Shown here one piece after another: positions 2,769 to 38,553 of a DNA stretch of 64,000 bases. The position numbers were made by a program, and so were the translations under genes. Origin of the DNA: an uncultured Actinomycetota bacterium (GTDB lineage Bacteria > Actinomycetota > Actinomycetes > Streptosporangiales > Streptosporangiaceae). Every line of letters begins with the position of its first letter. Position 1 is the first letter of the stretch. The notes beneath the pieces were generated by a model. It saw only the letters and a program-made list of their open reading frames with translations, ran no database searches and was not told the origin of the DNA. The DNA lies in the NCBI GenBank assembly GCA_963788895.1, contig CAWBJA010000018.1, forward strand, positions 40,499-104,498, given 5' to 3'.

Positions 2769-2798
2769 GCAAGACATTCCGGAAGGTTCTCGTTCCAC

Positions 2799-3831: not shown

Positions 3832-3888
3832 CCACCCTGAGCAACTGACCAGCCGGGCGATGCGGCCCGGGGTGGACGAGGTGATCTT

Positions 3889-4860
3889 GTGCACGACACC
3901 CGGCGGACCCGCCTGGTCCTCGGCGGGCTCCTGGCCACCGCGCTGCTGCTGATCACCCTCGACTACCCCGGCGGCGGGTCCGGGCTGCACGGCCTGCGCA
4001 GCTTCGGCGGCTCGGTGTTCGGCGGCGCCGAGCGCGCGGTCTCCACGGTGTCCAGCCCGGTCGCTGGCCTGTGGCGGTCGGGCAGTTCCGGCGGCCGCGG
4101 CCAGGTCGCCGCGCTGCAGGATCAGGTGCTCAGGCTCCGGTCCGAGCTGAGCCAGGCCCAGCTGAGCCAGGCCGATTACCGCCAGCTCACCCAGCTGCTC
4201 CAGCTGGCCGGGCGGGGCGGCTACCGGATCGTGGCGGCCAGCGTGATCGCGATCGGGCAGGGCTACGGGCAGACCGTGACGCTGGACGCGGGCAGCCAGG
4301 ACGGGGTGCGCGCCCAGGAGACTGTGCTCAACGGCCAGGGCCTGGTCGGGACGGTGACCTCGGTCAGCCCGCAGACCTGCACGGTGGTGCTGGCGACCGA
4401 CGCGACCTCCGTGGCCGGGGTGCGGCTGGCCGCCAGCGGCCAGATCGGCTGGGTCAGCGGGCAGGGCGCGGCCAAGTCCGGCGGACCCGAGTTGAAACTG
4501 CAGGTCCTGAACGCGAGCACCGGGCTGAAGCCGGGGCAGCAGCTGGTCACGTCCGCGTCGGTGCATGACCGGCCGTATGTGCCCGGGGTGCCCGTCGGGG
4601 TGATCAGCCAGGTGCTGAACCGGGCGGGCGCGCTCACCGCGGTGGCCCTGGTCCGGCCGTACGCCCAGTTCAGCTCGCTGAGCGTGGTCGGCATCGTGAT
4701 CGTGCCGCCGCGCCGCGACCCCCGGGACTCGGTCCTGCCGCCCAGCCCGCGAGCCCGGCCGACCCCGACCGTGACCGTCACCGTGACGCCCAGGGCGTCA
4801 GCGCGACCAGGCCAGCCCGGTCAGACTCCGGCCGGCCCGACCCCGGGGCCGGGAGGCTGA
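3889..4860 (+). CDS. mreC: rod shape-determining protein MreC
   Basis: 323 aa with an N-terminal TM segment, a coiled-coil (LQDQVLRLRSELSQAQL) and a beta-rich domain (VLNGQGLVGTVTSVSPQTCTVVLATD). Lies between mreB and mreD. Confidence 0.85.
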   Translation: MHDTRRTRLVLGGLLATALLLITLDYPGGGSGLHGLRSFGGSVFGGAERAVSTVSSPVAGLWRSGSSGGRGQVAALQDQVLRLRSELSQAQLSQADYRQLTQLLQLAGRGGYRIVAASVIAIGQGYGQTVTLDAGSQDGVRAQETVLNGQGLVGTVTSVSPQTCTVVLATDATSVAGVRLAASGQIGWVSGQGAAKSGGPELKLQVLNASTGLKPGQQLVTSASVHDRPYVPGVPVGVISQVLNRAGALTAVALVRPYAQFSSLSVVGIVIVPPRRDPRDSVLPPSPRARPTPTVTVTVTPRASARPGQPGQTPAGPTPGPGG

Positions 4861-4861
4861 G

Positions 4862-5536
4862 GTGCGGCGGATCGTGCTGTCGGCGGCCGCGGTGGTCGCC
4901 GCTCTGGTGCTGCAGCTCACCGTGGTCAACGCGCTGCCCTGGCCCGGGGGCGGCCCGCCCGACCTGGTGCTGCTGGTGGTGGTCGCACTCAGCCTGTGCG
5001 CCAGCCCGGGGGTCGGCGCGCTGACCGGCTTCCTGGCCGGCCTCAGCCTGGACATCGCGCCGCCTGGCAGCTACCTGATCGGCGCGTACGCGCTGGTGTT
5101 CTGCCTGGTCGGGTATGGGTGCGGGCGCCTGCCCGGGCCGCGGAAAGACTCGGTGTGGCGGCCGGTCGGCTGCGCGGTGGCCGCGGCTGCGGCCGGCGAG
5201 GCGCTGCAGGCGGGCCTCGGCCGGCTGGTCGGAGACCCGCAGGTCACCTGGCCGGCCATGGAGCGGGTCCTGCCGTCGGCGGTTCTGGCCGACGCGATCC
5301 TCAGCCCGTTCGTGCTTTACCTGGTCATGCGCGTGCTGGCCTGGGCCGACGAGCTGGGGCCCGCCGCCCAGCTGGCCCAGACGGTTTCCCCGGAACAGGC
5401 CAGGGCGGCCACCGCGGTGCCGCCCGGAGCCGGGCTGCTGGGCGGGGCCGTGGCTGGCCGGGCCCAGCTCGGTCACGGCGGGCCGGGGCCCGGACGGACG
5501 CAGCGGCCCGGCCCGGCGGGTGCCCCGGCTGCGTGA
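4862..5536 (+). CDS. mreD: rod shape-determining protein MreD
   Basis: GTG start 1 nt after the mreC stop. Polytopic hydrophobic product in the expected operon position. Confidence 0.8.
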   Translation: MRRIVLSAAAVVAALVLQLTVVNALPWPGGGPPDLVLLVVVALSLCASPGVGALTGFLAGLSLDIAPPGSYLIGAYALVFCLVGYGCGRLPGPRKDSVWRPVGCAVAAAAAGEALQAGLGRLVGDPQVTWPAMERVLPSAVLADAILSPFVLYLVMRVLAWADELGPAAQLAQTVSPEQARAATAVPPGAGLLGGAVAGRAQLGHGGPGPGRTQRPGPAGAPAA

Positions 5537-6817
5537 AGCCGCGGCCCGGTCCGGCGACGGCTGGATCGGGTTCGGGCCGTCGTCCTGGCGGACGCCCGCG
5601 CGGCGCCCGGCGGGCCGGACCCGGCGGCTGCGGCCCGGGCGCGGTCAGGCCGGGTCGGCCGCCGCCGTCAAGATGCGCCAGGCACCACCCCGGCGCCCGG
5701 TCAAGCTCCGGCTGGGCCCGGGCCGCCGCCCGCCCGGCCGCCGCCGCCCGGCCTGGCCCGCAGGCCAGTCCGCAGGTCAGTCCGCAGGCCTGGCCGGACG
5801 CAGCCGGGCCGGCAGTTCCGGCCCAGCCGGGTCGGCGTTCCGCGGCCCGAGGGCCCCGGTCCGCCGGGGCCGGCCTGCGGGGTGCCGGTTACCTGCGCGG
5901 TGCCGGTTACCTGCGCGGTGCGGGCCACCCGCGCGGTGCCGGTTACCGCCGGCGCGCCCAGGGCACCTCCTGGCGCGGCGTTCCGCGGCCCGCGCCCGCG
6001 CCCGAGCCGGACGGCGATCCGCCGCCCGCGCGGGTCGGCGTTCCGGACCGCGGGCCCCGGCCGGGGCGGGTCGGCGTTCCGGGGCCCGGGGGCCCGGCCG
6101 CCGCTGGCCGGCTCCGGCACCCGGGCCAAGGCGCCCAAGTTCCGGCTGGATACCCGCAAGCCCGGGGGATCGGCGTTCAGCTCGCCGCTGCGTCGGGCCA
6201 GGCCCGGTCAGCCGGCCAGCCGGCGGCTGCGCGCCCCGCGCCGCCGGGACGGCACTGTGGGCGGCAGCCTGGCCCGCCGCGGGCCTGGGGGCCGCAGGCC
6301 CGCGAGCAGGCCGGTCCGGCTCCGGCTGGGCAGCATGCGCCGCCGGGATGGCACCGTGGGCGGCACTGTGGGCGGCACTCTGGGCGGCAGCCTGGCCCGC
6401 CGCGGGCCTGGGGGCCGCAGGCCCGCGAGCAGGCCGGTGCGGCTGCGGCTGGGCAGCATGCGCCGCCGGGATGGCACTGTGGGCGGCACCCTGGGCGGCA
6501 GCCTGGCCCGCCGCGGGCCTGGGGGCCGCAGGCCCGCGAGCAGGCCGGTGCGGCTGCGGCTGGGCAGCATGCGCCGCCGGGATGGCACTGTGGGCGGCAC
6601 CCTGGGCGGCAGCCTGGCCCGCCGCGGGCCTGGGGGCCAAAGGCCCGCGAGCAGGCCGGTGCGGCTCCGGCTGGGCAGCATGCGCCGCCGGGACGGCACC
6701 GTCGGCGGGCTGGCCCCTGGTCAGCTGCGCCGGTCCACCCGGCGGGCCGCGCCCCGGTTCCGGGCCGGGTTCGGCGGCCGGATGGCGCTGCCCGGCCGGC
6801 GGCTCGGGGTGAGCTGA
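5537..6817 (+). other. Arg/Gly/Pro-rich repeat-coding region between mreD and PBP2; either a separate disordered repeat protein or an mreD extension, with the reading frame uncertain
   Basis: The mreD frame stays open for 1281 nt past its TGA. The frame-2 product contains 37-aa tandem repeats (GSLARRGPGGRRPASRPVRLRLGSMRRRDGTVGGTLG), and third-codon positions are about 90 percent G/C when counted by eye. The repeated nucleotide string GGGTCGGCGTTCCG (peptide GSAFR) is in frame 3 at 5829 but in frame 2 at 6032. Confidence 0.35.
6235..6715. repeat. tandem 111-bp (37-codon) repeat, about 4 copies (first copy 123 bp)
   Basis: Unit starts were read at 6263, 6386, 6497 and 6608. Copies 2 and 3 are identical. 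The period is divisible by 3. Confidence 0.85.
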
Positions 6818-6939
6818 GGCAAGCAGCTCAGGTTCCGCTCCAGTCACCGGTCCATGCTGTCGGCGTGGACCGGCGGCCGGCTGGGCTCCCGGTCGGCGGT
6901 CTGGCGGATCGGTAACACCAGGCGGACAGGGAGACCGTC

Positions 6940-9162
6940 ATGATCCCGGCTTCACGACGGCGGCTGGCCGTCCTGCATATCGTGGTCGCCGCGCTGCTGA
7001 TCGGCCTGGGCTGGCGGATCTGGAACGTGCAGATCGCCTCCGGCGCCTCCTACCGCAGCCTGGCCAGCCAGGACCAGGTCAGGAGCGTGATCGTGCCGGC
7101 CGTCCGGGGCGAGATCCTGGACGACAGCGGTCATCCGCTGGTCGACAACCAGTCCACCCTGGTGGTCGCGGTCGACATGGCCGAGGTGTCCCAGCAGCCC
7201 GACGGTGGCGCGGCCGAGCTGAGCCGGCTGGCCGCCCTGCTGCACATCCCGGACCAGACCATGCGGCTGAAGGTGCGGCTGTGCACGGCCGGGGTGAAGC
7301 AGCCCTGCTGGCCGGGGTCGCCCTACCAGCCGATCCCGGTGGCCGAGCACGTCTCCGACCAGGTCGCCGTGCAGGTGCTGGAGAGCCAGCGTCGAGTTCC
7401 CCGGCGTGACGGCCCAGGTGCAGCCGGTGGTGCACTACCCGCAGCCGGTCGGCACGGACGCGGCCCAGGTGCTCGGCTACCTGCAGCCGATCACCTCGCA
7501 GGAGGTCAAGCAGTTCGGCCTGCCGGTGACCGGCTTCTCCGGCGTCGACCTGGTCGGCCAGTCCGGCCTTGAGCAGCAGTACGACCGGCAGCTGCGCGGC
7601 CGCACCGGGGAAAGGCAAGTCTCGGTCAACGCGGCGGGCGAAGTCACAGGGACCATCAAGCAGACCGCGGCCCGGCCCGGCGACGACCTGGTCACCAGCA
7701 TCAACACCCGGGTCCAGCAGGACACGCAGACCGCGCTGGCGGCCGCGATCCACCGGACCGAAGGCCAGGGCAACGGCGGCGCCGACAGCGGCGCCGCGGT
7801 GGTCATGACGACCAAGGGCCGGGTGGTCGCGATGGCCAGCTACCCGACCTACAACCCGAGCGTGTGGGCCGGCGGCATCTCCGGCAAGGAGTTCACCGCG
7901 CTATTCGGGACCAGGAACTCCGAGCCGGTGCTCAACCGGGCTACCCAGGGCCAGTACGCGCCCGGCTCGACCTGGAAGGTCACCACCACGGCCGCCGCCG
8001 TGGCCGACGGGTACTCGCTGAACTCCGACTACAGCTGCCCGGCCACGGTGAACATCGACGGCCATCGTTACGCCAACGACGGGAGCCCCGGCCTGGGCCA
8101 GATGAGCCTGCGGCAGGCGCTGGTCGTTTCCTGCGACACCGTGTTCTACAACCTGGCCTACCAGATGTGGCGGCGCGACAACGTCAAGGCCGACAACGTC
8201 AAGTCAGCCAAGGCGCCGGTGCAGAAAATGCAGAAAATGGAGCTGGACTGGGGCTTCGGTAAGAACACCGGCGTCGACCTGCCGGCCGAGATCCCGGCAC
8301 CGTGCCCACCCGCGAATGGCTCTACTACTTCTGGAAGGACAACGCCCACACCGGCCAGAACTGGTGCAAGTACGGCAAGGCCAACGGGTCCTACATCCAG
8401 CAGATCGAGTACGACGACTGTCACAGCGCCAACGTGTGGACCCCGGGCCAGGCCGTGATCGCCTCGATCGGCCAGGGCTACGTGACGGTCACCCCGCTGC
8501 AGCTGGCCCGGGCCTACGCGGCGCTGGCCAACGGCGGCACCGTGTACAGCCCGCGGATCGGCCGGGCGCTGCTCAGCCCGGACGGCAAGAAGGTGCGGAC
8601 AATCACGCCGCCGGTGGTCGGGCACATTCCGGTGTCCAAGGGCACGCTGGGCTACATCAGGAGCGCGCTGAGCGGCGTGGTGACCTCGGGTACCGCGGCC
8701 GGGGCGTTCGGCGGCTTCCCGCTGGGCAAGGTCTGCGTGGCGGGCAAGACCGGTACCGCGCAGGTCCTCGGCGGGCTGGCGACCTCGGTGTTCGCCTCGT
8801 TCGCCCCCTGCCATAACCCCAAGTACGTCGTGGTCATGATGATCCCCAAGTCGGGTTACGGCGCCGACGTGTCCGCCCCGGCGGTCCGGCAGATCTGGGA
8901 CGGGATCTTCGGCCTGGAGGGCCACCGGGCCGCGCTGCCCGGCGGGGTCACGCCGCCGCTGCCGCACATCAACCAGGCGGGCCAGGTCGTCACCACCGGC
9001 TCGCCGCCGGGTAAGGCCGCCCGCGGCCACAAGTCCGGTGCCGCCCGCCCGGCCGGCCCGGCTGGCCCGGGCGGGTCGCCGCCCCCGGCCGCCTCGCCCA
9101 GCCCCGGCGCGCAGAATGTGCCGGGCGCTGCCGGGCCAGCCGGGCCCGGGAGGAAGCCATGA
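6940..9162 (+). pseudogene. mrdA: class B penicillin-binding protein PBP2 (elongasome transpeptidase) with two compensating frame breaks, at about 7390 and about 8293
   Basis: Three consecutive track ORFs (6940.., 7406.., 8302..) join into one PBP with an N-terminal TM segment and the motifs STWK, SCD and KTGTA. At break 1, GAGAGCCAG[C]GTCGAGTTC carries one extra nucleotide. Break 2 looks like one C lost from GAGATCCC(C)GGCACC. Confidence 0.88.
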
Positions 9163-9360
9163 GCCTGCTGCGGGATATCCGGCGGCGGTCTGGGCCCGGC
9201 GCGCAGAATGTGCCGGGCGCTGCCGGGCCAGCCGGGCCCGGGAGGAAGCCATGAGCCTGCTGCGGGATATCCGGCGGCGGTCTGGGCCCGGCGCGCAGAA
9301 TGTGCCGGGCGCTGCCGGGCCAGCCGGGCCCGGGAGGAAGCCATGAGCCTGCTGCGGGAC
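9109..9360. repeat. 92-bp tandem triplication spanning the PBP2 stop / rodA start junction
   Basis: Copies at 9109-9200 and 9201-9292 are identical. The third copy (9293-) diverges after CTGCGGGA. Each copy carries GGAGGAAGCCATGA, i.e. an SD, an ATG and an overlapping TGA. Confidence 0.9.
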
Positions 9361-10720
9361 TCCCGGCGGCGGTCCAGGCCAGGCGCCGCGCCCGGGCGGC
9401 CGGGCGGCTACGGCAAGCTGCCCCCGGTCCGGCCGAGCGCCTGGCGCGGCGCGACGAGCTACAAGCTGCCCAAGGCCCGGCCGGGCACCCGGCGCGGGCT
9501 GGGCAAGCTGCCCCCGGTCCGGCCCGCCGGGCACTCGCCCGGCTCGCCGCTGGGCCAGATCGCCCCGCGCAAGTCGCCGCTGCGCCGGGCGCTGGGCCGC
9601 GACTCGCCGCTGCGCCACCTGGACTACATCCTGCTGGCCGCGATGCTGGCCCTGAGCCTGGTCGGGACCCTGCTGGTCTGGTCGGCCACCACGCCCGCCC
9701 TGGTGCACTCGCACGCCGACCCGCGCACCTACCTGTACAAGCAACTGCTGAACATCGCGATCGGCCTGATCTTCCTGGGCGCGGTCAGCCTGCTCGACTT
9801 CCGCCAGTTGCGGCTGTACGCGCCGTTCCTCTACGCGGTGTCGGCCCTGGGCCTGGCGGTGGTGCTCACCCCGCTAGGCAGCATCGTCAACGGCGCCCAT
9901 TCCTGGATCTCGCTGCCCGGCGGCTTCCAGATCGAGCCGTCGGAGTTCGCCAAGCTGGCCATCATCCTGACCACCGCGATCATCCTGGGCGAGCTGCGCC
10001 AGGGCGAGACCAGGCCGCGGCTGCGGACGGTGGGACTGGCCGCGGGCGTCGCCGCGCTGCCCATCGGGCTGGTCGTGCTCGAACCCGACCTCGGCGTAGT
10101 GATCTTGATGCTGGCGCTGGTGATCGGCCTGATCGCGCTGTCCGGCATCCGGCTGTGGTGGCTGGCTCGGCCTGCTGGCCGGGGGCACGCTGGTGGCCAT
10201 CTCCGCGCTCCAGCTGCACCTGCTCAAGGCCTACCAGCTCGACCGGCTGACCGCGTTCGCCAACCCGTCCGCCGACCCGCGCGGCACTGGCTACAGCGCC
10301 GCCCAGGCCAAGATCGCGATCGGCTCGGGCGGGCTGTTCGGGCAGGGCCTGTTCCACGGCCAGCTGGTGGCCGGGAACTTCGTGCCCGAGCAGCACACCG
10401 ACTTCATCTTCGCGGTGGCGGGGGAGGAGCTTGGTTTCGCCGGCACGGTCCTGATCATCGCCCTGCTGGCCGTGCTGCTGCTGCGCGCGCTGCGGATCGC
10501 GGCCCGGGCCGACGACCAGTTCGGGATGCTGGTCGCAGCCGGGATCGCGATCTGGTTCGCGGTCCAGTCGTTTATCAACATCGGCATGACGGTCGGCATC
10601 ATGCCGGTGACCGGGCTGCCGCTGCCGTTCGTGTCCTACGGCGGGTCAGCCATCTTCGCCGACATGATCGCGGTCGGGGCGCTGATGGCGGTGCACCGCC
10701 GCCACACGGTCTTCACCTAG
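9343..10720 (+). pseudogene. rodA: SEDS-family peptidoglycan polymerase RodA, apparent frame break near 10153
   Basis: The ATG lies in the third repeat copy. An Arg/Pro-rich N-terminal tail is followed by TM segments (LDYILLAAMLALSLVGTLLVWSAT...). The C-terminal half (GLFGQGLFHGQLVAGNFVPEQHTDFIFAVAGEELGF...PLPFVSYGGSA) is in the +1 frame (track ORF 10193..10720). Length is 3n+1. Confidence 0.88.
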
Positions 10721-10755
10721 CCAGGTTCACTCCGCCGGGGTTCAGATGGCCGGGT

Positions 10756-11754
10756 TCAGCCTGGCCGGTGTTCACCTCTGGGCTGCGGAGCGTCCGGGCT
10801 GGGCGTCAGGTCCGGGGCAACGCTTGGCTCGGGGCCGGGCGCGTCAGCCGGGCCCGCTGAGCGGGCCCGGCCAGCCCCGGACTTCCCGTTCTGCCATGGT
10901 TTGGCCAGGCTCAGCCAGGTCAGCGCGGCGGCCAGCAGCACCGCGCACAGCACCCAGCCCAGGGCCGTGGTGCCCACCCCGACGTACTTCAGCCCCGACG
11001 CGAAGATCACGAACGTGATCGCGGGCCTGATGTAGCGGTCCGGGGCGTAGGACGACAGGAACGAGCCCACCAGGACGGCCGGGACGCTCCCGATGATGAT
11101 CGAGGTAGTGACCGCGAACTCCACGTGGCCGAAGGCCAGCGCGCCCAGCGCGGCGGCCAGGGTCAGCGGCACCGCCTGGGTCAGGTCGGTCCCGACCAGC
11201 TGGTTAGCGCCGAGCACCGGGTACAGGAACAGCAGCAGCACGATCATCAGCGAGCCTGAGCCCACCGAGGTCATCCCGACGATGATCCCGCCGGCCATGC
11301 CGATGGCCACGGTGAGCAGCGGCCGGCTGGCCACGTCGGCCACCACCCCCTGGCGCCGGTGCCCGCCGCGCAGGTCCAGGCCGTAGCGCAGCACCATGGC
11401 GCCCGCGCCGACCAGCAGCGCCGCGCCGAGCACCTGCTCCACCCGGTCCTGGGCGGCGGCGGCATTGCCGATCAGGTGGAGCAGATAGGAGCCGAAGAAC
11501 GCCATCGGCACCGAGCCCAGCACCATCCAGCCGACCAGCCGCAGGTTGACCGTGCCCTTGCGCAGGTGCACCGCCGCGCCGACCGGCCGCATCACGACCG
11601 CGGCGACCAGGTCGCTGGAGATCGCGGTGGACGGCTTCACCCCGAACAGCAGGATCAGCATCGGGGTCATCAGCGCTCCGCCGCCCGCCCCGGTCAGGCC
11701 GACCAGCAGCCCGACGACCGCGCTGCCGATCACGATGTAAGGATCGACGTGCAA
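10756..11754 (-). CDS. TauE/SafE (TSUP, DUF81) family sulfite/anion exporter
   Basis: 332 aa and polytopic. The N-terminal pattern GLLVGLTGAGGGALMTPMLILLFG is typical of this family. Confidence 0.8.
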   Translation of the reverse strand: MHVDPYIVIGSAVVGLLVGLTGAGGGALMTPMLILLFGVKPSTAISSDLVAAVVMRPVGAAVHLRKGTVNLRLVGWMVLGSVPMAFFGSYLLHLIGNAAAAQDRVEQVLGAALLVGAGAMVLRYGLDLRGGHRRQGVVADVASRPLLTVAIGMAGGIIVGMTSVGSGSLMIVLLLFLYPVLGANQLVGTDLTQAVPLTLAAALGALAFGHVEFAVTTSIIIGSVPAVLVGSFLSSYAPDRYIRPAITFVIFASGLKYVGVGTTALGWVLCAVLLAAALTWLSLAKPWQNGKSGAGRARSAGPADAPGPEPSVAPDLTPSPDAPQPRGEHRPG

Positions 11755-11926
11755 TCCGCACCTCCGGAGGCGCTGGCGCGCGGCCTGGGCCTGACCGGCG
11801 CGGGAGCCGCACGGCGGGCGGCCGTGACGGTCTGAATTTCACTCCCCTTCTATCACGATCTGATAGCTAGGAAACCGATATGCCCGGACTGGCCGCGGCG
11901 TGACCCGCGCGCCGGCTCGGTAGGCT

Positions 11927-14032
11927 GTGACGATGCCAGTGCGTTCGGTGTACCCCGAGCTTGAGCCGCTGCTGCCGCGAGTCCGCAAGCCCGTGCAGTA
12001 CGTGGGCGGTGAGCTGAACTCGGTCGTCAAGGACTGGGACGCGGCGCAGGTGCGGTGGGCGCTGATGTATCCGGACGCGTACGAGGTCGGGGTGCCGAAC
12101 CAGGGCGTGCAGATCCTCTACGAGGTGCTCAACGGCTGCCCCGACGTACTGGCCGAGCGGACCTACAGCGTCTGGCCGGACCTGGAGGCACTGATGCGGG
12201 CGCACCAGATCCCGCAGTTCACCGTGGACGCGCACCGGCCAGTCGGCGCTTTCGACGTGCTCGGGGTGAGTTTCGCCACCGAACTGGGCTACACCAACCT
12301 GCTGACCGCGCTCGACCTGGCCGGGATCCCGCTCAGCGCGGCCAGCCGCGGCGATGACCACCCGCTGGTGCTGGCCGGCGGGCACGCGGCGTTCAACCCC
12401 GAGCCGATCGCGGAGTTCATCGACGGGGCCGTGCTGGGCGACGGCGAGCAGGCCGTACTGGCCATCACCGAGCTGATCAGGGCCTGGAAGCGAGCCGGGC
12501 GGCCCGGCGGGCGCACCGGCCTGCTGCTGCGGCTGGCCGCCGACGGCGGGGTGTACGTGCCGCGGTTCTACGACGTCAGCTACGCCGCCGATGGCCAGAT
12601 CGAGCAGGTCAGCCCGAACCGGCCCGGCGTACCGCGGACGGTGGCCAAGCACACCGTGATGGACCTGGACTCCTGGCCTTACCCGCGCAAGCCGCTGGTG
12701 CCGGTGGCCGAGTCGGTGCACGAGCGGTTCAGCGTGGAGATCTTCCGCGGCTGCACCAGGGGCTGCCGGTTCTGCCAGGCGGGCATGATCACCCGGCCGG
12801 TCCGGGAGCGGTCGGTGACGACCGTGGGCGAGATGGTGCAGGCCGGGCTGGGCGCCAGCGGGTTCAGCGAGGTAGGGCTGCTGTCGCTGTCCAGTGCCGA
12901 CCACAGCGAGATCAACGAGATCGCCACCGGCCTGGCCGACCGGTACCAGGGCACCAACACCGGGCTCTCGCTGCCCTCCACCCGGGTGGACGCGTTCAAT
13001 GTGACGCTGGCCGACGAGCTGAGCCGCAACGGGCGCCGGTCCGGGCTGACCTTCGCCCCGGAAGGCGGCACCGACCGGATCCGCAAGGTGATCAACAAGA
13101 TGGTCACCGAGGACGACCTGATCCAGACGGTGACCACCGCCTATGCCAGCGGCTGGCGGCAGGTGAAGCTGTACTTCATGTGCGGGCTGCCCACCGAGAC
13201 CGACGAGGACGTGCTGGCCATCGCTCGGGTGGCCCGGCGGGTCATCGAGGCGGGCCGGGCCGCGACCGGTCGGCGTGATATCCGCTGCACCGTATCGATC
13301 GGCGCGTTCGTGCCCAAGCCGCACACCCCGTTCCAGTGGGTCGCCCAGTGCGATCACCAGACGGTCGACGCCCGGCTGCGGGCGCTGGGCCAGGCGCTGC
13401 GCGCGGACCGGAACTACGGCAAGGCCATCGGCTTGCGCTACCACGAGGGCCAGCCGTCGATCATCGAGGGCCTGCTGTCCCGCGGTGACCGGCGGGTGGC
13501 CAAGGTGATCAAGGCGGCATGGCTGGCCGGCGCCAGGTTCGACGGGTGGAGCGAGTACTTCAGCTACGACCGGTGGGCCACGTGCGCGGAGGAAGCGCTG
13601 GCCGCCGACGGCGTCGACCTGGCCTGGTACACCACCAGGGAGCGGGGCTACCGCGAGCTGCTGCCCTGGGATCACCTGGACTCCGGGCTGGACCGGGACT
13701 GGCTGTGGCAGGACTGGCTGGCCGCCATCGACACCAGCGGCGCGGCCGAGGTCGAGGACTGCCGGTGGACCCCCTGCTTCGAGTGCGGCGTCTGCCCGGC
13801 GATGGGCACCGAGATCGAGACCGGGCCGACCGGGGCCAGGCTGCTCCCGCTGAGCGTGGCGGGCGGGCCAGCGGCCGGCCGGACCGAGCCGGCGCCGGTG
13901 GCGGGCGGGCCAGCGAGCGGCCGGACCGGCCTTGCGCCGGTGGCGGGCGGGCCGCCAGCCCCGGGTCCGGGCCAACCCCGGGCGGGACTAGGGAATGAGA
14001 CAGGCCACGGGAGACGTTCCCGTTATAAGTAA
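11927..14032 (+). CDS. radical SAM protein of the TIGR03960 type with a B12-binding-like N-terminal domain
   Basis: 701 aa with the CxxxCxxC cluster motif FRGCTRGCRFCQAG. Conserved partner of the next gene, upstream of rne. The start may instead be the ATG at 11933. Confidence 0.85.
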   Translation: MTMPVRSVYPELEPLLPRVRKPVQYVGGELNSVVKDWDAAQVRWALMYPDAYEVGVPNQGVQILYEVLNGCPDVLAERTYSVWPDLEALMRAHQIPQFTVDAHRPVGAFDVLGVSFATELGYTNLLTALDLAGIPLSAASRGDDHPLVLAGGHAAFNPEPIAEFIDGAVLGDGEQAVLAITELIRAWKRAGRPGGRTGLLLRLAADGGVYVPRFYDVSYAADGQIEQVSPNRPGVPRTVAKHTVMDLDSWPYPRKPLVPVAESVHERFSVEIFRGCTRGCRFCQAGMITRPVRERSVTTVGEMVQAGLGASGFSEVGLLSLSSADHSEINEIATGLADRYQGTNTGLSLPSTRVDAFNVTLADELSRNGRRSGLTFAPEGGTDRIRKVINKMVTEDDLIQTVTTAYASGWRQVKLYFMCGLPTETDEDVLAIARVARRVIEAGRAATGRRDIRCTVSIGAFVPKPHTPFQWVAQCDHQTVDARLRALGQALRADRNYGKAIGLRYHEGQPSIIEGLLSRGDRRVAKVIKAAWLAGARFDGWSEYFSYDRWATCAEEALAADGVDLAWYTTRERGYRELLPWDHLDSGLDRDWLWQDWLAAIDTSGAAEVEDCRWTPCFECGVCPAMGTEIETGPTGARLLPLSVAGGPAAGRTEPAPVAGGPASGRTGLAPVAGGPPAPGPGQPRAGLGNETGHGRRSRYK

Positions 14033-26819: not shown

Positions 26820-28320
26820 GCACCCTCTTTCTCAAGGGCACCACTACGGTGCTCGTTGTAGGGACTCGGCGGGAGCCGGGGTGACGGTCTGTTGCGGTCG
26901 CCGGTAGACGGCCTGCATGACACCACCGCCCCCGGTTTCTCCGGGGACACGGACTGGCAACAGGGAGACGCGCCGCAGAGCGCCGGTTAGTGACCGCCCG
27001 GTAGCTGTCCTCCTCGCCGAGTTGCCGTCGCTGCCACCCTGAGGAGCTTCTGTGTCGTTTGCGCTGCCTGATGCGCTGTTTTTCACTGGGATCGACTGGG
27101 CCGCGGAGGTCCATGCCGTGTGCGTGATGGACGCCGCAGGGAAGATCGCGGCGAGTTTCTCCATCGAGCACTCGGCGGACGGGATCGCGCTGCTGATCCG
27201 CCGGCTGGCAAGGTATGGCGAGGCCGCCTGCATGCCGGCCGCGATCGAGCGCCCGGATGGCCGCCTGGCGGACCTGCTGCTGGAGGCCGGGCACCCGGTC
27301 GTGCCGGTCAGCCCCAATGCGATCAAGACCTGGCGGGAAGGCGAGGTTCTGTCCGGCGCCAAGTCCGACGCCGGGGACGCCGTGGTGATAGCCGAGTACC
27401 TGCGGCTGCGCGCGCACAAGCTGCGGGTCGTGCCGCCTTACTCCGATGAGACCCGGGCGCTGCGCACCGTTGTGCGCACCCGCGGCGACCTGGTCGAGAT
27501 GCGGGTCGCGGCCACCAGCCAGCTGCCGGCGCTGCTGGACGCGCACTGGCCCGGCGCTAAGGCCATCTTCGCTGACGTCGAGTCGCCGATCAGCCTGGAG
27601 TTCCTCACCCGCTACCCGACCCCGGCCGCCGCCGCGCACCTGGGCGAGAAGCGGATGGCCGCGTTCTTGATCAAGCACGGTTACTGCGGCCGCCGCACCC
27701 CCGCTGAGCTGCTCGCCCGGCTGCGTGCCGCACCGGCGGGCACCGGCCTGCAGGCACTCGGCGAGGCGCTGCGCGACGCCGTGCTCGCCGCCGCCGGCGT
27801 GCTGGCAGCCCTGAACGCCTCGGTGAAGAACCTCGACCGCTCCGTCGCCGCCCACCTCGGAGAGCACCCGGACGGCGCGATCTTCACGTCGCTGCCAAGG
27901 TCGGGTCAGGTCAACGCCGCCCAGGTGCTCGCCGAGTGGGGCGATGCCCGCCCAGCCTACGAGCACCCCGACTCCGTCGCCGCCCTCGCCGGGGTCACCC
28001 CCGTCACCAGGCAATCCGGCAAGCACCGCTCCGTGAGCTTCCGCTGGGCCTGCAACAAGCGGTTCCGCGCCGCGATCACCACCTTCGCCGACAACAGCCG
28101 CCACGCCAGCCCCTGGGCCGCCAAGATCTACAACGACGCCCGCGCCGCCGGCAAAGACCACCCCCACGCCACCCGCATCCTCGCCCGCGCCTGGATCCGC
28201 ATCATCTACCGCTGCTGGCTCGACGGCGTCCCCTACGACCCATCCAGGCACGGAGCCGCCGCCGCACTCGCCGAACAACCGACTAAGCAAATCGCGGCCT
28301 GAGGTTGACACAGGGAGTGT
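26820..28320 (+). mobile_element. IS110-family insertion sequence (left boundary approximate)
   Basis: The transposase CDS is preceded by a non-coding leader of roughly 230 bp and followed by a very short 3' end, as is typical of the IS110 group. A truncated TPR gene begins immediately after it at 28321. Confidence 0.7.
27052..28302 (+). CDS. IS110 family transposase (DEDD recombinase)
   Basis: 416 aa. The N-terminal FTGIDWAAEVHAVCVMDAAGK belongs to the DEDD_Tnp_IS110 type. The C-terminal LAGVTPVTRQSGKHRSVSFRWACNKRFR belongs to the Transposase_20 type. Confidence 0.9.
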   Translation: MSFALPDALFFTGIDWAAEVHAVCVMDAAGKIAASFSIEHSADGIALLIRRLARYGEAACMPAAIERPDGRLADLLLEAGHPVVPVSPNAIKTWREGEVLSGAKSDAGDAVVIAEYLRLRAHKLRVVPPYSDETRALRTVVRTRGDLVEMRVAATSQLPALLDAHWPGAKAIFADVESPISLEFLTRYPTPAAAAHLGEKRMAAFLIKHGYCGRRTPAELLARLRAAPAGTGLQALGEALRDAVLAAAGVLAALNASVKNLDRSVAAHLGEHPDGAIFTSLPRSGQVNAAQVLAEWGDARPAYEHPDSVAALAGVTPVTRQSGKHRSVSFRWACNKRFRAAITTFADNSRHASPWAAKIYNDARAAGKDHPHATRILARAWIRIIYRCWLDGVPYDPSRHGAAAALAEQPTKQIAA

Positions 28321-29889: not shown

Positions 29890-30290
29890 GCCCGGACCGG
29901 CTGCAGCGTGGTGGCTGGGGCTGTTGCATGACGCCGGGAAGGCGTCCTGCGGATGGCAGGACCGGCTGCGTGGAGTGGCAGGTACGGACCGGCCGGTCGG
30001 GCTTGATCACAAACTGCTGGGTGCGCGCCTAGCGCAGGACCGCGGGCTGGCTGCGTTCGCAATGGCGGTGGCTGGGCATCATGGCGGGCTGACGTCCCGG
30101 GCGGATTTAGCTGGACGGCTGAAGGGGCTGACGGATGCTGAACGGGTCCGTGAGGCCGATGCGCTGGTGAGCTTGGACCGGGCGCTGCCTGAGCTAGCTG
30201 ATGGCAGTGCTGTCTCGTGGCCGGATTCGTGGAGGCAGCCGCTGGTCGGGGAGATGGCCTTGCGGCTGTCACCGCTGATGACTCTGCCGC
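29890..30290 (+). pseudogene. remnant resembling a Cas3-type HD nuclease domain
   Basis: The frame-2 translation WWLGLLHDAGKASCGWQDRL...LDHKLLGARL...AVAGHHGGL fits the HD-domain motif series (HDxGK, H, GHHG) seen in Cas3 HD domains. There is no start codon, and the frame switches near 30220. No helicase domain, other cas genes or CRISPR array are present in the window. Confidence 0.3.
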
Positions 30291-30339
30291 GGCGTCAGCG
30301 CCCGCGCCGGCTGCTGCCGGCCGGACGGCGGGCAAGCGC

Positions 30340-30831
30340 CCGGCGGGGGTGTCGCGGTGGGTGAACGCGAACGGCAAGATCTCCCTGGCCGGGTTCTCCT
30401 GCCATGTCGGCGCGGCCTATGCCGGGGAGCCGGTCGAGGTCGTGGTGGCTGGCGGCCTGGTGGACATCCTGCACGCCGGGGTGGTGGCCGCCACCCACGC
30501 GCAGCGGATCCGCGAGGACCAGGCTGACCGGCTGCCCCGCGCCCCGGTGGCCCGCCGCGCCCGGGACGCCACCGCCGGGATCACGGTGACCCGGCTGGCT
30601 GACGGCGCCGGGGTGGTCTGCTTCGCCGGCGCGTCCTACGCGTGCGGCAGGCGGTGGGCCCGTACCGCCATCGACGTGTCGATCGTGGCCGCCTCGGTGC
30701 AGCTGTCCAAGGACGGCAAGGTCATCCGGGTGCACCCGATCCGCCACGACCGTTCCCGCGAGCTCGGCGCCTTCGCTAACCCCAAAGGCCGCCCCCGGCG
30801 CAAGAACTCCGCCCTCGGCAACACCGCCTGA
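30340..30831 (+). pseudogene. C-terminal fragment of an IS481-like (rve / Mu-transposase-C type) transposase
   Basis: ...RWVNANGKISLAGFSCHVGAAYAGEPVEVVVAGGLVDILHAGVV...SVQLSKDGKVIRVHPIRHDRSRELGAFANPKGRPRRK matches the tail of actinomycete IS481-family transposases. No catalytic core is found upstream. Confidence 0.55.
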
Positions 30832-32346: not shown

Positions 32347-32602
32347 GATGGTGTCCCTTCATCGCGGCCATAGCCGAGGTCTTATTCCAGCTCTGGCTGG
32401 GGTCGCTGTGGTTCCCTGGCGAACCACAGCGAAGAGTTGTTGTCTTTGGGGGTTTGAGCTGGTCTTTCGCTGGCAGATTGTGGCTCGCGGAGCGAAGAGC
32501 GGCGAATGGCTGGCCCGCCACCGGTGAACCGACATGCCGCCGCATTCGTCAGGGGAGCAGGGAAGCGGGTTGCTGAGCGGCGGGTTGCTGGGAGGTGACG
32601 TT

Positions 32603-35600
32603 ATGCGGTCCGAGCGGGGACAGGCTGACCTGCCGCCGGGTCCGGTCCGGGAGCTTGCCGATCTGTTCCGGCGACTGCGGCGCCAGCGGCCGCTGTCGGT
32701 CGGCCAGATCGCGGTCGCGACCAGCTTGTCGCCTAGTCATGTTAGTGAGGTGCTGCGGGGGTGGAAGACGCCGAGCCCTCAAGCCGCCGACGCGATAGCC
32801 CGCGCGCTGGGTGCTGGCGCTGAGGAAGCCGCCAAGGCGCACCGGATGGCTGAGCAAGTCCAGGAGCTGAAGCGCTATCTGCGCACGCACAGCGCACCGC
32901 CCGGGGCAGGTCGCCAGCCATGGACGTGGCATTCCCTGCCTGTCCCAGCCGGTGACGGGCACGGGCATCTGGCACGGTTGACGCGTTCGGGGGCAGCCGG
33001 TGACGAGGATCTAGGGTCAGCGGCGTGCTATGAGCCCGTGGTGGAGGTATTCCCGGTGGCGATCGGCCATTACACCGATCCGGGCATGGCAGATCTGGGA
33101 GGCGTCGAGGCGCGGGTGGGGCGGCTGGTGGACCTGCTGGCCGTGTTCGGTGGCCGGCACCGGCCCTGGGCGCAGCCGGCCAGGGAGCGGGGGGCCAGCG
33201 CTGTCCAGCGTCGGCTGCGGGACTGGTCGCGGCCTCCCGCTGCGGCAACTGATACGGGCCGGCGGGCTGGTCTTGGGCTTAGCCCGCCACCTGGGTCGGT
33301 GCTGTACTGGGTGGGGCATGGCTGGTCGGATGGCTTCCGGGCGGTGCTGGCGCACGCCGAAAGCCCGGCGACGGTTGGCGGGTGGGGGCTGGAACCACAG
33401 CAACTGGCGCAGGCCATCCGCGCGCGGCAGGCGGCGATCCCGGCTGGTTGGCAGGGGGCGGGGGCAGGAGGCTGGGCGCTGGTGGTGCTGGACACCAGCC
33501 ACGCCACCCAGGTCGCCGACGCCGTCATGGCGGCGTTGCATGGCCCGGACGCCCCGGGGCGGCTGCTGCTGGTCGCCGTCCCGCATGACGACGCCGCGCC
33601 AGCGGCCGGGTTCGGCGACGTGCTGGCGGCTCTACTGGCCAGCACGTACCGGGCCGAGCGCCAGATCCTGCTGCGTGACCTGGCCAGCCAGCTGGAACGG
33701 GTGCTGGGCCCGGGCAACGTGTATCAGCGGGGCTTGGGTGAGGCGGCGCTGGTGCGGACCTACCCGCCTGTGGCGTCGTGGATGTCAGCGCCGGTGGATA
33801 CCATCCGCCACCTCGAAGAGGTCCTGGCGAGCCTGCCCGCCGATGAGCGCAGCCATTTCGTGGGCAAGGCGCAGGGTGCCGAACAGGGCGAGTTGTGCTG
33901 GTTCTTCGAAGGCCGCCAGCAGGAAGCCGGGCAGATCAGCACCTGGCTGCACCAGGCCCTCTCCGGCATGCTGGTGGTCACCGGACGCGCCGGATCAGGC
34001 AAGTCCGCGCTGCTCGGCAGCGTGCTGGTGCACTCGCTGCCCGGCCTGCGCGACGCGCTGGCCCGCCGCGGGCTGATCACCATGCCCGGGCCCGCCAGCC
34101 TGCCCCCCGACGGAGTGTTCGACGCTGTTATTCATCTCAGCGGCCTGACCCTGCAGCAGGCCACCGGCCGGGTGGCCGCCGCCGCAGGCCTGGGTCGGCT
34201 GCCGTCGCAGACCGACTCTGCCCTGGGGGTGGCCAACGACCTGGACTGGCTAACCGACCGCTTGCCGGCGATGCTGGAGGGCCGGGGCCGACCGCTGACG
34301 ATCCTGGCCGATGCCCTCGATGAGGCCATCGACCCGCTGGATACCGCCCGGGCGCTGCTAGCCCGGCTCGCGGCTCTGCCCCAGGTGCGGGTGCTGGTGG
34401 GAACCCGGGCCTCCACCAGCGAAACCCCTGACACCCCCGCAGGCGATAACGATCTACTGCGCGCTTTGAGCGCCGATCTCCCCTCGCCAGGTGCGCAGGG
34501 CGGCCCGGGACTGGTGCGGGTTGGCCGCGACAGCCAGGCGATCAGCCGCTATGCGGCCCGCCGTCTGCGGCACGCCCGCGACTACGGCCTGGGCGGGGGC
34601 GCCATTCCCGCCATGACTCACGTGCGTGATGCCGACATTGACCGGGCCGCTGGGGCCATCGCCGCCCGGGACCGGGAATTCCTGTTCGCCCGCTTGGCGG
34701 TCTACGAGCTGATCGAGGATCCCACGTTCCTGCTGCCCGGTCGGGCCGCTTCCTTGGATCAGCTCCTGCGCGGCGATCACCAGGACCTGTTCGCCAAGGC
34801 CCTGGACCGCCTCGCCCGCCTCGATGACCACTACGAGCCGCTGATCCAGGCCCTCGCCCTGGCCCGCGGCCGCGGCATCCCCGAGGCCGATGGCATCTGG
34901 GCCACCATCGCCGCCGCCTTCACGACAACGCCCGGGCACCCCAGACCCCCCGGGGATCCCAGCACCAATGGCCTGGCACCCCGGGCGTGGGCGCGCGCCA
35001 TCCAAGGCCTGCTCAGCCATGCCGCCGCCTACCTCGTGGTCGATACCGCAGACGAGGGGCAGCGCGCAACGGTCTACCGGCTGGCACACCGCACCTTCGT
35101 GGAGTACTTCACCAGGACCCGGCAGGCCAGCACCGCCCACCGGGACCGGCAACGCCACGCGGCCAAGGCATTGCTAGACCGAGCGCGTCAGATCGCGGCT
35201 GCCGATCCCGGCGGCATGCCTGCCTATCTAGCCCGGCATCTGACTGGGCACATCGGCGATGCCAGGCTCTGGGACAGCCTGGCCGCTACCCCCCGCGTCC
35301 TGGACGGCCTCCATCCCGCCGCGGTGACCACTGATGCCCTGCGCACTCTATTCGGCCGCCGGGCCATCCCCGCGCCCATCGCCGGGATCATCGGCGCCCG
35401 CGACGACCTGCTCACCGCCTCACCCGCAGACCGCGCGGCCTGCGGCAACTCGCCAGCACCACCCATAGCCCCCGGCGCGTTCCCGGCGAGCCTTGCCACC
35501 AGTGGGGGATCGCAGCCGCTCAGGCCGGGCAGGTCAGTATGCACATCCGGCTCACCGGCCACACCGCTCCCGTCGCCGGTGTGTGCGTCCTGCCGCTGCC

Positions 35601-38553
35601 CGGCGGGCGCACCTCGGTCGCCTCCGCCAGCGACGATGGCACCATCCGGCTGTGGGACCCTCAGACTGGTGCGCCCATCGGAGCACCGCTGACCGGCCAC
35701 ACCGGCACCGTCGAGGGTATCTGCGCCATTTCGCTCCCGGACCAGAGCACGGTGCTGGCCTCAGCCAGCAGCGATGGGACGGTGCGGGTCTGGGATCCGG
35801 TCACCGGCCGGCCGGTCGGCGGGCCGCTTACCGGTCACGCCGGGCCTGTGCTCGGGGTGTGCGCGGTGCCGGGGACTGGCGGGCCGGGCGGGCGGACCTG
35901 GATCGCCTCCGCCGGGACCGATGGGACGGTGCGGGTCTGGGATCCGGTCACCGGCCGGCTGGTCGGCGGGCCGCTGACCGGTCACGCCGGGATCGTGGCC
36001 AGCGTGTGCGCGGTGCCGGGGACTGGCGGGCCGGGCGGGCGGACCTGGATCGCCTCCGCCGGGGATGACGGGGCGGTGCGGGTCTGGGAGCCGGTCACCG
36101 GCCGGCTGGTCGGCGGGCCGCTGACCGGTCACGCCGGGCCTGTGCTCGGGGTGTGCGCGGTGCCCGGGACTGGCGGGCCGGGCGGGCGGACCTGGATCGC
36201 CTCCGCCGGGACCGATGGGACGGTGCGGGTCTGGGATCCGGTCACCGGCCGGCTGGTCGGCGGGCCGCTGACCGGTCACGCCGGGACTGTGCTCGGGGTG
36301 TGCGCGGTGCCCGGCGGCTGGCGGGCCGGGCGGGCGGACCTGGATCGCCTCCGCCGGGACCGATGGGACGGTGCGGGTCTGGGATCCGGTCACCGGCCGG
36401 CTGGTCGGCGGGCCGCTGACCGGTCACGCCGGGACTGTGCTCGGGGTGTGCGCGGTCCCGGCGGCTGGCGGGCCGGGCGGGCGGACCTGGATCGCCTCCG
36501 CCGGAGCCGACGGGACGGTGCGGGTCTGGGATCCGGTCACCGGCCGGCCGGTCACAAGGCCCTTGGTATCCAATCACGTCGGCGCCGTGCGCAGCGTGTG
36601 CGCGGTCCCGGCGGCTGGCGGGCCGGGCGGGCGGACCTGGATCGCCTCCGCCAGAGCCGACGGGACGGTGCGGGTCTGGGATCCGGTCACCGGCCGGCTG
36701 GTCGGCGGGCCGCTGACCGGTCACGCCGGGACTGTGCTCGGGGTGTGCGCGGTCCCGGCAGCTGGCGGGCCGGGCGGGCGGACCTGGATCGCCTCCGCCG
36801 GGGATGACGGGACGGTGCGGGTCTGGGATCCGGTCACCGGCCGGCTGGTCGGCGGGCCGCTGACCGGCCACGCCGGCGGCGTGCGCAGCGTGTGCGCGGT
36901 GCCGGGGACTGGCGGGCCGGGCGGGCGGACCTGGATTGCCTCCGCCGGGGATGACGGGGCGGTGCGGGTCTGGGATCCGGTCACCGGCCGGCTGGTCGGC
37001 GGGCCGCTGACTAGTCACGCCGGCGGCGTGCGCAGCGTGTGCGCGGTGCCGGGGACTGGCGGGCCGGGCGGGCGGACCTGGATTGCCTCCGCCGGGGATG
37101 ACGGGGCGGTGCGGGTCTGGGAGCCGGTCACCGGCGGCTGGTCGGCGGGCCGCTTACCGGTCATACCGGGCCTGTGCTCGGGGTGTGCGCGGTGCCGGGG
37201 ACTGGCGGGCCGGGCGGGCGGACCTGGATTGCCTCCGCCGGGGATGACGGGGCGGTGCGGGTCTGGGAGCCGGTCACCGGCCGGCTGGTCGGCGGGCCGC
37301 TTACCGGTCATACCGGGCCTGTGCTCGGGGTGTGCGCGGTGCCGGGGACCGGCGGGCCGGGCGGGCGGACCTGGATCGCCTCCGCCGGGACCGATGGGAC
37401 GGTGCGGGTCTGGGATCCGGTCACCGGCCGGCTGGTCGGCGGGCCGCTGACCGGTCACGCCGGGCCTGTGCTCGGCGTGTGCGCGGTGCCGGGGACTGGC
37501 GGGCCGGGCGGGCGGACCTGGATCGCCTCCGCCGGGGATGACGGGGCGGTGCGGGTCTGGGATCCGGTCACCAGCCGCCCGGTCGGTGAACCACTGACCA
37601 CTTCGCAGGCTCCCGTGGCAGCGCTGCAGCCACTCAGAATCACAGACGCGGCCTGCGCAGTCGTGCGCTCGGCCGGATACCTGCACCTATGGAAGCCCGC
37701 CACCGGCACGCTGACCCCCGCAGCGACCCCGACCCCGCACGTGTCAGCGTTCGCCGAACTCACCACCAAGACCAACTCCCCCCGCGTGTGGATCGTCGCC
37801 GATCCCAGCGGCCTGCTGACCCTCATCACGCCTACCCGGGGCGCCCCGTCCCGCACTACCCGCCTCGGCGACACCATTCTTAGCCTGCTGTCCATCCCCG
37901 GCCAGCCACCCCAGCTTGCCTGCGCCAGCCGCAACGGGACCATCGCTCTCCTGCACGCCGACACCCTGCGCCCGGCCGGGCCGCCGCTGACCGGCCATGA
38001 CGGTCCTGTGCGCACCCTGTGCTTGCTGACCACCCCTAATAGCCCTGCCATCCTCGCCTCCGCTGGACACGACGCCGCCATCCGGCTCTGGGATCCCAGC
38101 GGCAGAACCGCCATCGGAGGGCCGCTGACCGGTCACGACGGCTGGATCTGGGCACTAACCGCCATTCCCGCCACCAGCCCGGACACCACCCTGCTCGCGT
38201 CCGCGGGCGCCGACGCGACGATACGGATTTGGGATCCCCGCACCGGCGAAGCCGCCATGCCGCCGTTGACCGGCCACACCGGCCAAGTCCGAGCCCTCAC
38301 CCTCGCCGTGGCCGCAGACGGCAGCACGCTCCTGCTGTCGGGCGGCCACGACGGCACGATCCGGCTCTGGCACCCCGTCACCGGCCAGGCCATCCACGCC
38401 ATCCCGCTCGGCGTGCCGGTCCATGCTCTGCTCCAGCAACCCCTTGACCACCGCTCCCGCCAGCGCACCGCCAACGGGGCAACCATCGTCGTCGGCCTGC
38501 GCACGGGCATTCTCAGCCTCGACCTCAACCGGTCGATGTTCCCCGTACGATAA
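32603..38553 (+). pseudogene. NLR/STAND-type protein of about 1980 aa with domain order HTH, caspase-like domain, NACHT-type P-loop NTPase, about 20 WD40 repeats; interrupted by three single-nucleotide frame changes
   Basis: SD GGGAGG plus the ATG at 32603. XRE-like HTH (SVGQIAVATSLSPSHVSEVLRG). Caspase-like dyad context: LYWVGHGWSDG (GHG at 33314-33322) and ALVVLDTSHA (33491-33505). Walker A GRAGSGKS at 33983-34006 and Walker B LTILADALDE. WD units carry the LTGH...VRVWD signature. The frame changes lie at about 35440-35530, about 36312 (+1) and about 37130 (-1). Confidence 0.8.
35824..37590 (+). repeat. array of 12 near-identical 147-bp (49-codon) WD40 repeat units
   Basis: The unit is LTGH(A/T)G(P/T/I/G)V(LG/AS/RS)VCAVP(GT/AA)GGPGGRTWIASAG(T/D/A)DG(T/A)VRVW(D/E)PVTGRLVGGP. 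The nucleotide copies are nearly identical. Divergent WD units flank the array on both sides. Confidence 0.9.

Follow-up and report, generated by a model that had tools for sequence, protein, structure and literature searches.

The WD40 array and its gene

A stretch of 64,000 nucleotides from an uncultured Actinomycetota bacterium of the Streptosporangiaceae (contig CAWBJA010000018.1 of assembly GCA_963788895.1, positions 40,499 to 104,498 of the forward strand; hereafter the window) was analysed for a gene that carries a tandem array of WD40 repeats. The repaired gene encoded a protein of about 2005 aa, which comprised an XRE-type helix-turn-helix (HTH), a caspase-fold domain, a STAND P-loop NTPase, a helical region, and about 21 WD40 blades. 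According to sequence inspection, the blades consisted of 2 divergent, 12 homogenised, and about 7 degenerate C-terminal ones. The parts of the WD40 region are listed below, where u1 to u12 denote the homogenised units and position 1 of a unit is the proline right after WD (register PVTG...VWD).

35530-35796, plus strand: WD40 blades 1-2, divergent (59% amino-acid identity to the core unit)
35797-37563, plus strand: twelve homogenised 49-aa WD40 units (blades 3-14), located by Tandem Repeats Finder (TRF), motif spacing, and alignment; u1 at 35797-35943, u12 at 37417-37563
36533-36682, plus strand: u6, the eighth WD repeat, with a divergent head and one extra codon
37564-38553, plus strand: C-terminal non-homogenised WD40 region of about seven degenerate or divergent blades with the stop codon, collinear with the C-terminus of the intact relative P0012

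A single tandem array was reported by TRF at 35772-37586 (period 147, 12.3 copies, 92% matches, 1% indels). The 14-mer GTGCGGGTCTGGGA, which codes for VRVWD, occurred 13 times, and the spacings between its occurrences were 147, 147, 147, 148, 147, 150, 147, 147, 147, 146, 147, and 147. Both results recovered the array of a preliminary description of the sequence, in which twelve near-identical 147-bp units had been placed at 35824-37590. The pairwise DNA identity of the units had a mean of 91% and a range of 77-98%, with u8 and u9 as the top pair, and the mean protein identity was 0.876. All of the low DNA identities (down to 0.77) were found in pairs with u6, as was the lowest protein identity (0.694). 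This unit was the sole strongly divergent one, with at least 12 differences and its extra codon in the strand-D/D-A loop head. No very recent whole-unit duplication was detected among the array units, and the longest exact repeat was 139 bp. The flanking blades had 34-59% protein identity and 54-67% DNA identity to the core unit, in agreement with their earlier description as ordinary divergent repeats. Hence, the array was real, lay at the place given, and was clearly distinct from its flanks.

Homogenised units and their variable codons

The column statistics and, by the Nei-Gojobori method, the codon-class proportions of nonsynonymous (pN) and synonymous (pS) differences refer to 11 units, with u6 excluded. 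The pS value within the window array was 0.12. In the comparison of the window with its closest full-length relative, P0008, pS was 0.37 for the units (minimum 0.28), 0.40 for blades 1-2, and 0.45 for the NOD region; within the array of P0008 itself it was 0.31. The contrast between 0.12 within the array and 0.37-0.45 to P0008 indicated that the units were recently homogenised or re-amplified, and the evidence for this from synonymous sites is direct. Moreover, the best internal identity of the window array (0.84) was higher than its best match to the blade of any relative (0.67). The concerted evolution of the core units that had been proposed from the sequence was thus borne out by both measures. 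The best blade match also lay in the locus's own array for L010, L027, L034, and L044. The opposite was observed for L003, L007, and L008, in which the best match lay in another species; on this comparison, their blades read as orthologous and without homogenisation. In relatives from several genera, the arrays had some 12 detectable units (period 132-144 bp, matches 70-88%), but the unit sequences differed. The retention of about 12 units across genera with lineage-specific sequences points to in-place homogenisation under a constraint on blade number.

The units were mosaics of a 5' block, a hotspot block, a loop block, and a 3' block. The four-gamete test failed for 41 of the 136 informative site pairs, and these incompatible pairs suggested shuffling of unit segments. 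A second array was present in one relative, Actinokineospora bangkokensis (L044), where WD40 arrays at 3246-4026 and 10327-11969 lay 6 kb apart on opposite strands with 86-89% mutual identity; the identity between the arrays equalled that inside each array. A weaker version was observed in L027, with about 80% identity between arrays and 84-88% within them. Judged from such sequences, loci of this bacterial family probably exchange units with one another, as those of the fungal NWD family do.

The amino-acid variation of the 11 typical units was found at positions 6, 13, 15, 17, 19, 20, 26, 27, 41, 44, and 49. The alternatives were A/T at 15, P/T/I/G(/A) at 17, L/A/R at 19, G/S at 20, GT/AA at 26-27, T/D/A at 41, T/A at 44, and D/E at 49. 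Every variable residue that had been named in the preliminary description was present in the unit alignment, and positions 6 (L/P) and 13 (G/S) were found in addition. At the nucleotide level, 20 of the 49 codons varied, 9 of them only synonymously. The earlier statement that variation was confined to a few codons was therefore too strong, although a concentration at hot codons was evident. Three or more states were found solely at positions 17 (P/T/I/G), 19 (L/A/R), and 41 (T/D/A), and the alleles of these three codons differed by two or three nucleotides. Position 43 was an invariant glycine in the window array. The tetrad residues H14, S38, D42, and W48 were present in all 12 units, with NH instead of GH in u6.

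The structural placement of these codons was evaluated with a hotspot rule for WD40 proteins, in which R1 and R2 are enclosed by two bulky residues where strand A begins, R1-2 is the residue two ahead of R1, and D-1 is the residue just before the tetrad Asp (Wu et al., 2012, PMC3419727). Applied to V18-L19-G20-V21 and to D42 of the DHSW tetrad, the rule gave position 19 as R1, 20 as R2, 17 as R1-2, and 41 as D-1. The three multi-allelic codons 17, 19, and 41 are thus predicted to coincide exactly with the canonical top-face hotspots R1-2, R1, and D-1. The longest in-frame stretch, with 5.6 units, was also modelled with AlphaFold2 (AF2), and the model had a predicted local distance difference test score (pLDDT) of 88 and a predicted template modelling score of 0.88. 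In each unit, the model placed the D-A loop at 15-17, strand A at 18-25, the A-B loop at 26-33, strand B at 34-40, the B-C turn at 41-43, and strand C at 44-49. Strands A, B, and C were resolved in each unit and strand D partly, and the A-B loop had lower confidence. A Foldseek search with the model returned canonical WD40 propellers, including Rsa4, LIS1, WDR5, and PkwA (E ~1e-15 to 1e-13), as well as designer seven-blade proteins. Pfam WD40 (PF00400) matched 14 stretches with 307.9 bits against a cut-off of 27.

In WD40 propellers, the top face is built from the D-A and B-C loops and the bottom face from the A-B and C-D loops. From this loop topology, positions 15, 17, 19, 20, 41, and 44 were assigned to the top, whereas the GT/AA pair (26-27) and the D/E alternative (49) were assigned to the bottom. 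The earlier placement of the variable residues on the top face therefore held for 17, 19, and 41 by both the rule and the model, but not for GT/AA or W(D/E). The GT/AA pair co-varied with a synonymous change at codon 24, and it looks like a hitch-hiking haplotype block rather than a selected site. The added length of the unit relative to its relatives (44-48 aa) sat in the A-B loop. An insertion of seven residues per unit had been proposed; the extra length was confirmed, but it amounted to 5-7 residues, in a loop of low confidence in the model.

The distribution of the variation among the codons was uneven. The 15 nt of codons 15, 17, 19, 20, and 41 held 11 of the 29 variable nucleotide columns (hypergeometric P=2.4e-6). 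The proportions for the codon classes were as follows.

Five hot codons (15, 17, 19, 20, 41): pN 0.36, pS 0.29
Three hot codons (17, 19, 41): pN 0.45, pS 0.38
Other 44 codons: pN 0.024, pS 0.088

The pN value of 0.024 outside the hot codons indicated purifying selection. The hot-codon pN (0.36-0.45) was 4-5 times the background pS of the same units (0.088); hence, simple relaxation is insufficient, provided that all sites share one history. Furthermore, blades were cut from 15 related loci and aligned, and the entropy of each position was compared over seven homogenised arrays (the window, L006, L010, L012, L027, L034, and L044). The highest mean entropy was found at positions 41, 19, 17, and 15, and position 43 was also highly variable in L027, L034, and L044. 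In sum, the contact positions R1-2, R1, and D-1 of the top face are where differences between units are preferentially retained.

N-terminal domains and the reading frame

The part of the protein ahead of the blades was divided as follows.

32534-35437, plus strand: N-terminal non-repeat part of about 968 aa, up to the first frame break (ORF, open reading frame, 32534-35692)
32651-32833, plus strand: XRE-type HTH, aa 40-100 (Pfam HTH_31, E=6e-11, 42.9 bits, cut-off 27)
33011-33889, plus strand: caspase-fold domain, aa 160-452, previously unannotated, between the HTH and the NTPase (AF2 pLDDT 87.7, Foldseek)
33902-34414, plus strand: STAND-type P-loop NTPase core, aa 457-627, with Walker A GRAGSGKS (Pfam)

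Homologues of the N-terminal ORF had 50-71% identity, and many were fused to WD40 repeats. NCBIfam gave no match for the N-terminal part, and a profile search against the PDB gave nothing significant. The top Foldseek matches of the caspase-fold domain were MALT1 paracaspase (E=1.3e-6), caspase-9, caspase-7, caspase-3, and a metacaspase, with E values of 1e-6 to 1e-3 and TM scores of 0.45-0.6. This fold was assigned from structure comparison only; Pfam had no match in the region that separates the HTH from the NTPase, and no Pfam caspase family matched even the Cys-bearing relatives. The histidine of YWVGHGW was invariant in 26 relatives. The position of the catalytic cysteine was occupied by Ser in the window (VVLDTSHAT), by Ser or Glu in the nearest clade, and by Cys (DTC, DSC, DAC) in distant relatives. 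The caspase-like domain is possibly a pseudo-protease, or else a variant with Ser as the nucleophile. For the NTPase, the Pfam scores were 25.1 bits for NPHP3_N (cut-off 24.8), 24.6 for nSTAND1 (cut-off 27.1), and 22.1 for AAA_16, and NACHT (PF05729) had E=0.57. The relatives are named nSTAND1 or NACHT-WD proteins by NCBI.

The closest relatives in a scan of species representatives were Streptosporangiaceae metagenome-assembled genomes (MAGs) with 61-62% identity, and a metagenome scan for the GGPGGRTWIASAG-coding pattern gave 0 matches. The relatives P0009, P0013, and P0018 had the same caspase-like and NTPase core with the XRE HTH replaced by SARP (BTAD and Trans_reg_C) or TIR_2/SEFIR, and the closest database relatives, P0003 and P0006, were NOD-only genes without WD40. 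Such relatives, with the HTH swapped or WD40 absent, display the modularity that is typical of STAND/NLR proteins. Such NOD-only genes, the closest database relatives of the N-terminal part (67-71% identity), were located on JGI metagenome contigs (L053 1684-4188 and L054 8001-10412); both were followed by a conserved YcaO/nitroreductase/ThcOx-type cluster on the opposite strand.

In the window, P0008, P0010, L006, and L034, the strand-D head of the eighth repeat was the one that departed most from the consensus. This odd repeat (u6) is read as the putative junction of two seven-bladed propellers, and its divergence suggests that the segment was shielded from homogenisation. The neighbouring genes in the window were uninformative as to a role in defence, non-self recognition, or cell death; there was no defence-island context, and no Bell or amyloid-motif partner gene adjoined the gene. 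An IS110-family transposase (DEDD_Tnp_IS110 and Transposase_20) at 27052-28302 and a fragment of a Mu-transposase C-terminal domain at 30217-30831 lay 2-5 kb upstream, and this upstream region may be mobile or rearranged.

As assembled, the gene was split into four overlapping ORFs by three 1-nt indels, on which the earlier description was silent.

35437-35438, plus strand: frame break 1, a G run that is one G short (from frame comparison and the junctions in homologues; homologues read ...SPADRAGLRQLA...)
36309, plus strand: frame break 2, an extra G in u4 (148-bp unit)
37135-37136, plus strand: frame break 3, in u10 (146-bp unit), which lacks one C

Near 35437, the window read ...SPADRAACGN..., and the +1 frame and all of the homologues read ...SPADRAGLRQLA(S/T)T(T/I)HS.... 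Three single-base repairs yielded one ORF of 2005 codons with no internal stops. A frame plot of GC content at third codon positions over the whole window displayed a similar frame switch within the mre operon. Within 2691-10860, single-base breaks were found in mreB (~3550), PBP2 (~7390 and ~8300), and rodA (~10165), and the Pfam domains continued across each of them. The profile positions on the two sides of the breaks were as follows.

MreB: 2-252 upstream, 250-326 downstream
PBP dimerisation domain: 2-98 upstream, 96-179 downstream
PBP transpeptidase: 1-142 upstream, 152-297 downstream
RodA: 5-179 upstream, 182-354 downstream

That three essential cell-wall genes should carry four breaks within 8 kb is implausible as biology, and the indel rate of the assembly was about 1 per 2 kb, which resembles a long-read or MAG consensus. 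Because mreB, PBP2, and rodA were split in the same manner, the three indels in the gene are most likely assembly errors and not pseudogenisation. Among 52 related loci, 45 had detectable blades, and 41 of these 45 were single-frame apart from isolated stray matches. Within one gene, the frame changed only in the window and in the MAG loci L001, L005, and L014; it also changed in L031, where a second gene is present. Every relative from an isolate genome kept its blades in one frame, stray matches aside. On the strength of the housekeeping-gene breaks and the relatives, it is highly probable that the gene is intact in vivo. Programmed frameshifting was considered and rejected, since the breaks ran in opposite directions, lay at unrelated sites, and were matched by those in housekeeping genes. 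Where frame breaks occur in such arrays of long-read or MAG assemblies, the nearby housekeeping genes should be checked before a pseudogene is called.

Interpretation and known counterparts

The account that is favoured here, and that is considered likely as a whole, is that of a homogenised, contact-site-diversified WD40 sensor of an intact NLR-like STAND protein. The array would be the sensor region of one large actinomycete protein of this kind. Blades 3-14 are kept near-identical in DNA by processes inside the array, namely recent duplication of units, gene conversion, or unequal exchange. Blades 1-14 may form two seven-bladed propellers, the top faces of which would bind ligand. Reassortment of the unit variants would alter the binding specificity, by analogy with the proposal for fungal NWD/HET-E. 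Ligand binding might license NTP-dependent oligomerisation, with an output through the N-terminal module of HTH and caspase-like domain (Cys to Ser). The three frame breaks would be assembly errors in an intact gene.

Several observations weigh against this account. Positive selection at the hot codons was not formally demonstrated, as pN/pS inside them was about 1.2, on about 4 synonymous sites; the ratio was this low because pS there was also raised (0.29-0.38). Relaxed constraint together with protection from conversion may be an alternative cause of the hot-codon pattern. The hot-spot residues were small (P/T/G/I/A, L/R/A, and T/D/A), and 8 distinct hot-spot combinations were found among the 12 units. 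Within the array, adjacent units did not resemble each other significantly more than distant ones did (P=0.13). Singleton substitutions made up 9 of the 29 variable columns, and in an error-prone assembly these call for caution, as in principle does the copy number. At the level of the protein, the catalytic His-Cys dyad was incomplete, with His present and Cys replaced by Ser; NACHT-type Pfam models matched the NTPase at or below threshold; and PADLOC matched no defence model and returned weak HTH matches only.

The pattern might also have arisen by a young amplification without diversifying selection, that is, by the recent expansion of a single unit and neutral drift that was better tolerated at exposed loops. 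The low within-array pS of 0.12, the singleton columns (9 of 29), and the hot-codon pN/pS of about 1.2, which is compatible with neutrality, are in line with such an origin. Most highly repetitive WD40 proteins have been read as young duplications as well (Hu et al., 2017, PMC5587647). However, the hot-codon pN was 4-5 times the background pS, the alleles differed by 2-3 nucleotides per codon, and positions 17, 19, and 41 had top variability in independent arrays too. The size of about 12 units was moreover conserved across genera with lineage-specific unit sequence, and the units were mosaic. A young amplification of this kind is hence regarded as unlikely.

A decaying pseudogene, with three genuine frameshifts and an array that survives as a relic free of selection, is very unlikely. 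The gene was indeed assembled as four overlapping ORFs, the relatives P0007, P0008, P0010, and P0011 end in out-of-frame WD40 translation, and the IS110 transposase and the Mu-transposase fragment lie upstream. However, the identical single-base breaks in mreB, PBP2 (twice), and rodA argue for assembly error, no in-frame stops remained after repair, pN outside the hot codons was 0.024, and the relatives in isolate genomes were intact. An assembly artefact, in which the copy number or unit order results from collapse, expansion, or consensus mixing of reads or strains, is the least probable explanation: the assembly was demonstrably indel-prone, the extra G at 36309 lay where GT-type and AA-type units differ and could be a polishing hybrid, and the longest exact repeat reached 139 bp, but twelve units were also found in independent relatives, including complete genomes, 20 variable columns were common to at least two units in consistent blocks, and the array was in frame save for two 1-nt indels.

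The sensor account was compared with known systems. Highly-Repetitive (HR) WD40 proteins are defined by an internal identity of at least 0.7, and 305 of them were found, about half of which were prokaryotic; they have low synonymous divergence (dS), while their hotspot sites stay diverse (Hu et al., 2017, PMC5587647). The window array is like them in its protein identity of 0.876, its low dS between repeats, its many repeats with full DHSW tetrads, and its residual diversity at the predicted top-face hotspots. It differs in its 49-aa unit, its enlarged A-B loop, and its HTH/caspase-like/STAND context, and its family was not treated in that catalogue. NLR-like proteins of filamentous Actinobacteria and Cyanobacteria carry WD or TPR repeats that are 80-90% internally identical, and a rapid diversification of the fungal type was suggested for them (Dyrka et al., 2020, bioRxiv 10.1101/2020.01.06.895854). 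The window protein shares with these proteins the taxon, the tripartite order (N-terminal effector or adaptor, NOD NTPase, and C-terminal repeats), and the repeat identity, but its NTPase is nSTAND1/NPHP3_N-like and not a clear Pfam NACHT or NB-ARC. Bacterial STAND proteins with WD40 propeller sensors and N-terminal caspase-like proteases were described in a 2026 survey (PMC13581612). The window protein resembles these Apaf-1-like STANDs in fold and in the domain order of caspase fold, STAND NTPase, and WD40 propellers, and it differs in having Ser for the catalytic Cys and an extra N-terminal XRE HTH. The window locus thus fits all three descriptions and differs in details, namely the unit, the Cys-to-Ser replacement, and the HTH.

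In het-e, het-d, and het-r of Podospora anserina, the selected codons 7/9 and 25/27 each flank a conserved residue (Paoletti et al., 2007, PMC1805685). Fungal codons 7/9 correspond to window positions 17/19 around V18 (the strand-A Val), and 25/27 correspond to 41/43 around D42 (the Asp of the B-C turn). The correspondence is exact, and the entropy ranking of the seven homogenised arrays reproduced the fungal finding. In the window array, 3 of the 4 fungal-equivalent positions were hypervariable (17, 19, and 41). Like the fungal NWD/HNWD proteins, the window protein combines a STAND NTPase with WD40 repeats that are under concerted evolution and have mosaic units. The unit is 42 aa in fungal NWD and 49 aa in the window, and the N-terminus is a HET domain in the former and an HTH with a caspase-like domain in the latter. 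Exchange among about 10 paralogous loci is documented in fungi, whereas one locus is visible in the window. To our knowledge, no allorecognition role is known in bacteria. The preliminary description had recognised the pattern from fungal NWD/HET-E and bacterial NLR-like genes; the published counterparts agree with this, and the pattern is hence not new in kind. The array provides a clean and quantified bacterial counterpart to HET-E/NWD, and in seven independent actinobacterial arrays the variable codons were the same and occupied the same places in the structure. This supports the view that hypervariable repeat sensors of NLR-like proteins are common to multicellular bacteria and fungi. Positions 17, 19, and 41, together with 43 in relatives, are candidates for the determination of specificity.

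A broader reading is speculative and, at present, improbable. Filamentous actinomycetes might run a receptor-repertoire system of the fungal type, in which exchange of WD40 units would take place both inside single STAND genes and among their paralogues, and diversity would be actively maintained at four contact codons. The likeness of the two arrays in L044 fits an exchange between paralogous STAND genes. In the clade of the window protein, the change of the caspase Cys to Ser would have ended a proteolytic output, and the signal would pass to transcription by way of the added XRE HTH. If this reading were true, the protein would be an NLR-like sensor rewired into a regulator.

Two further tandem repeats were observed in the window. 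One of them, at 9103-9386 between PBP2 and rodA, had 3.1 copies of 92 bp (96%), a period that is not a multiple of 3. The other, at 6250-6708 inside ORF 4996-6915, had 4.0 copies of 111 bp (90%).

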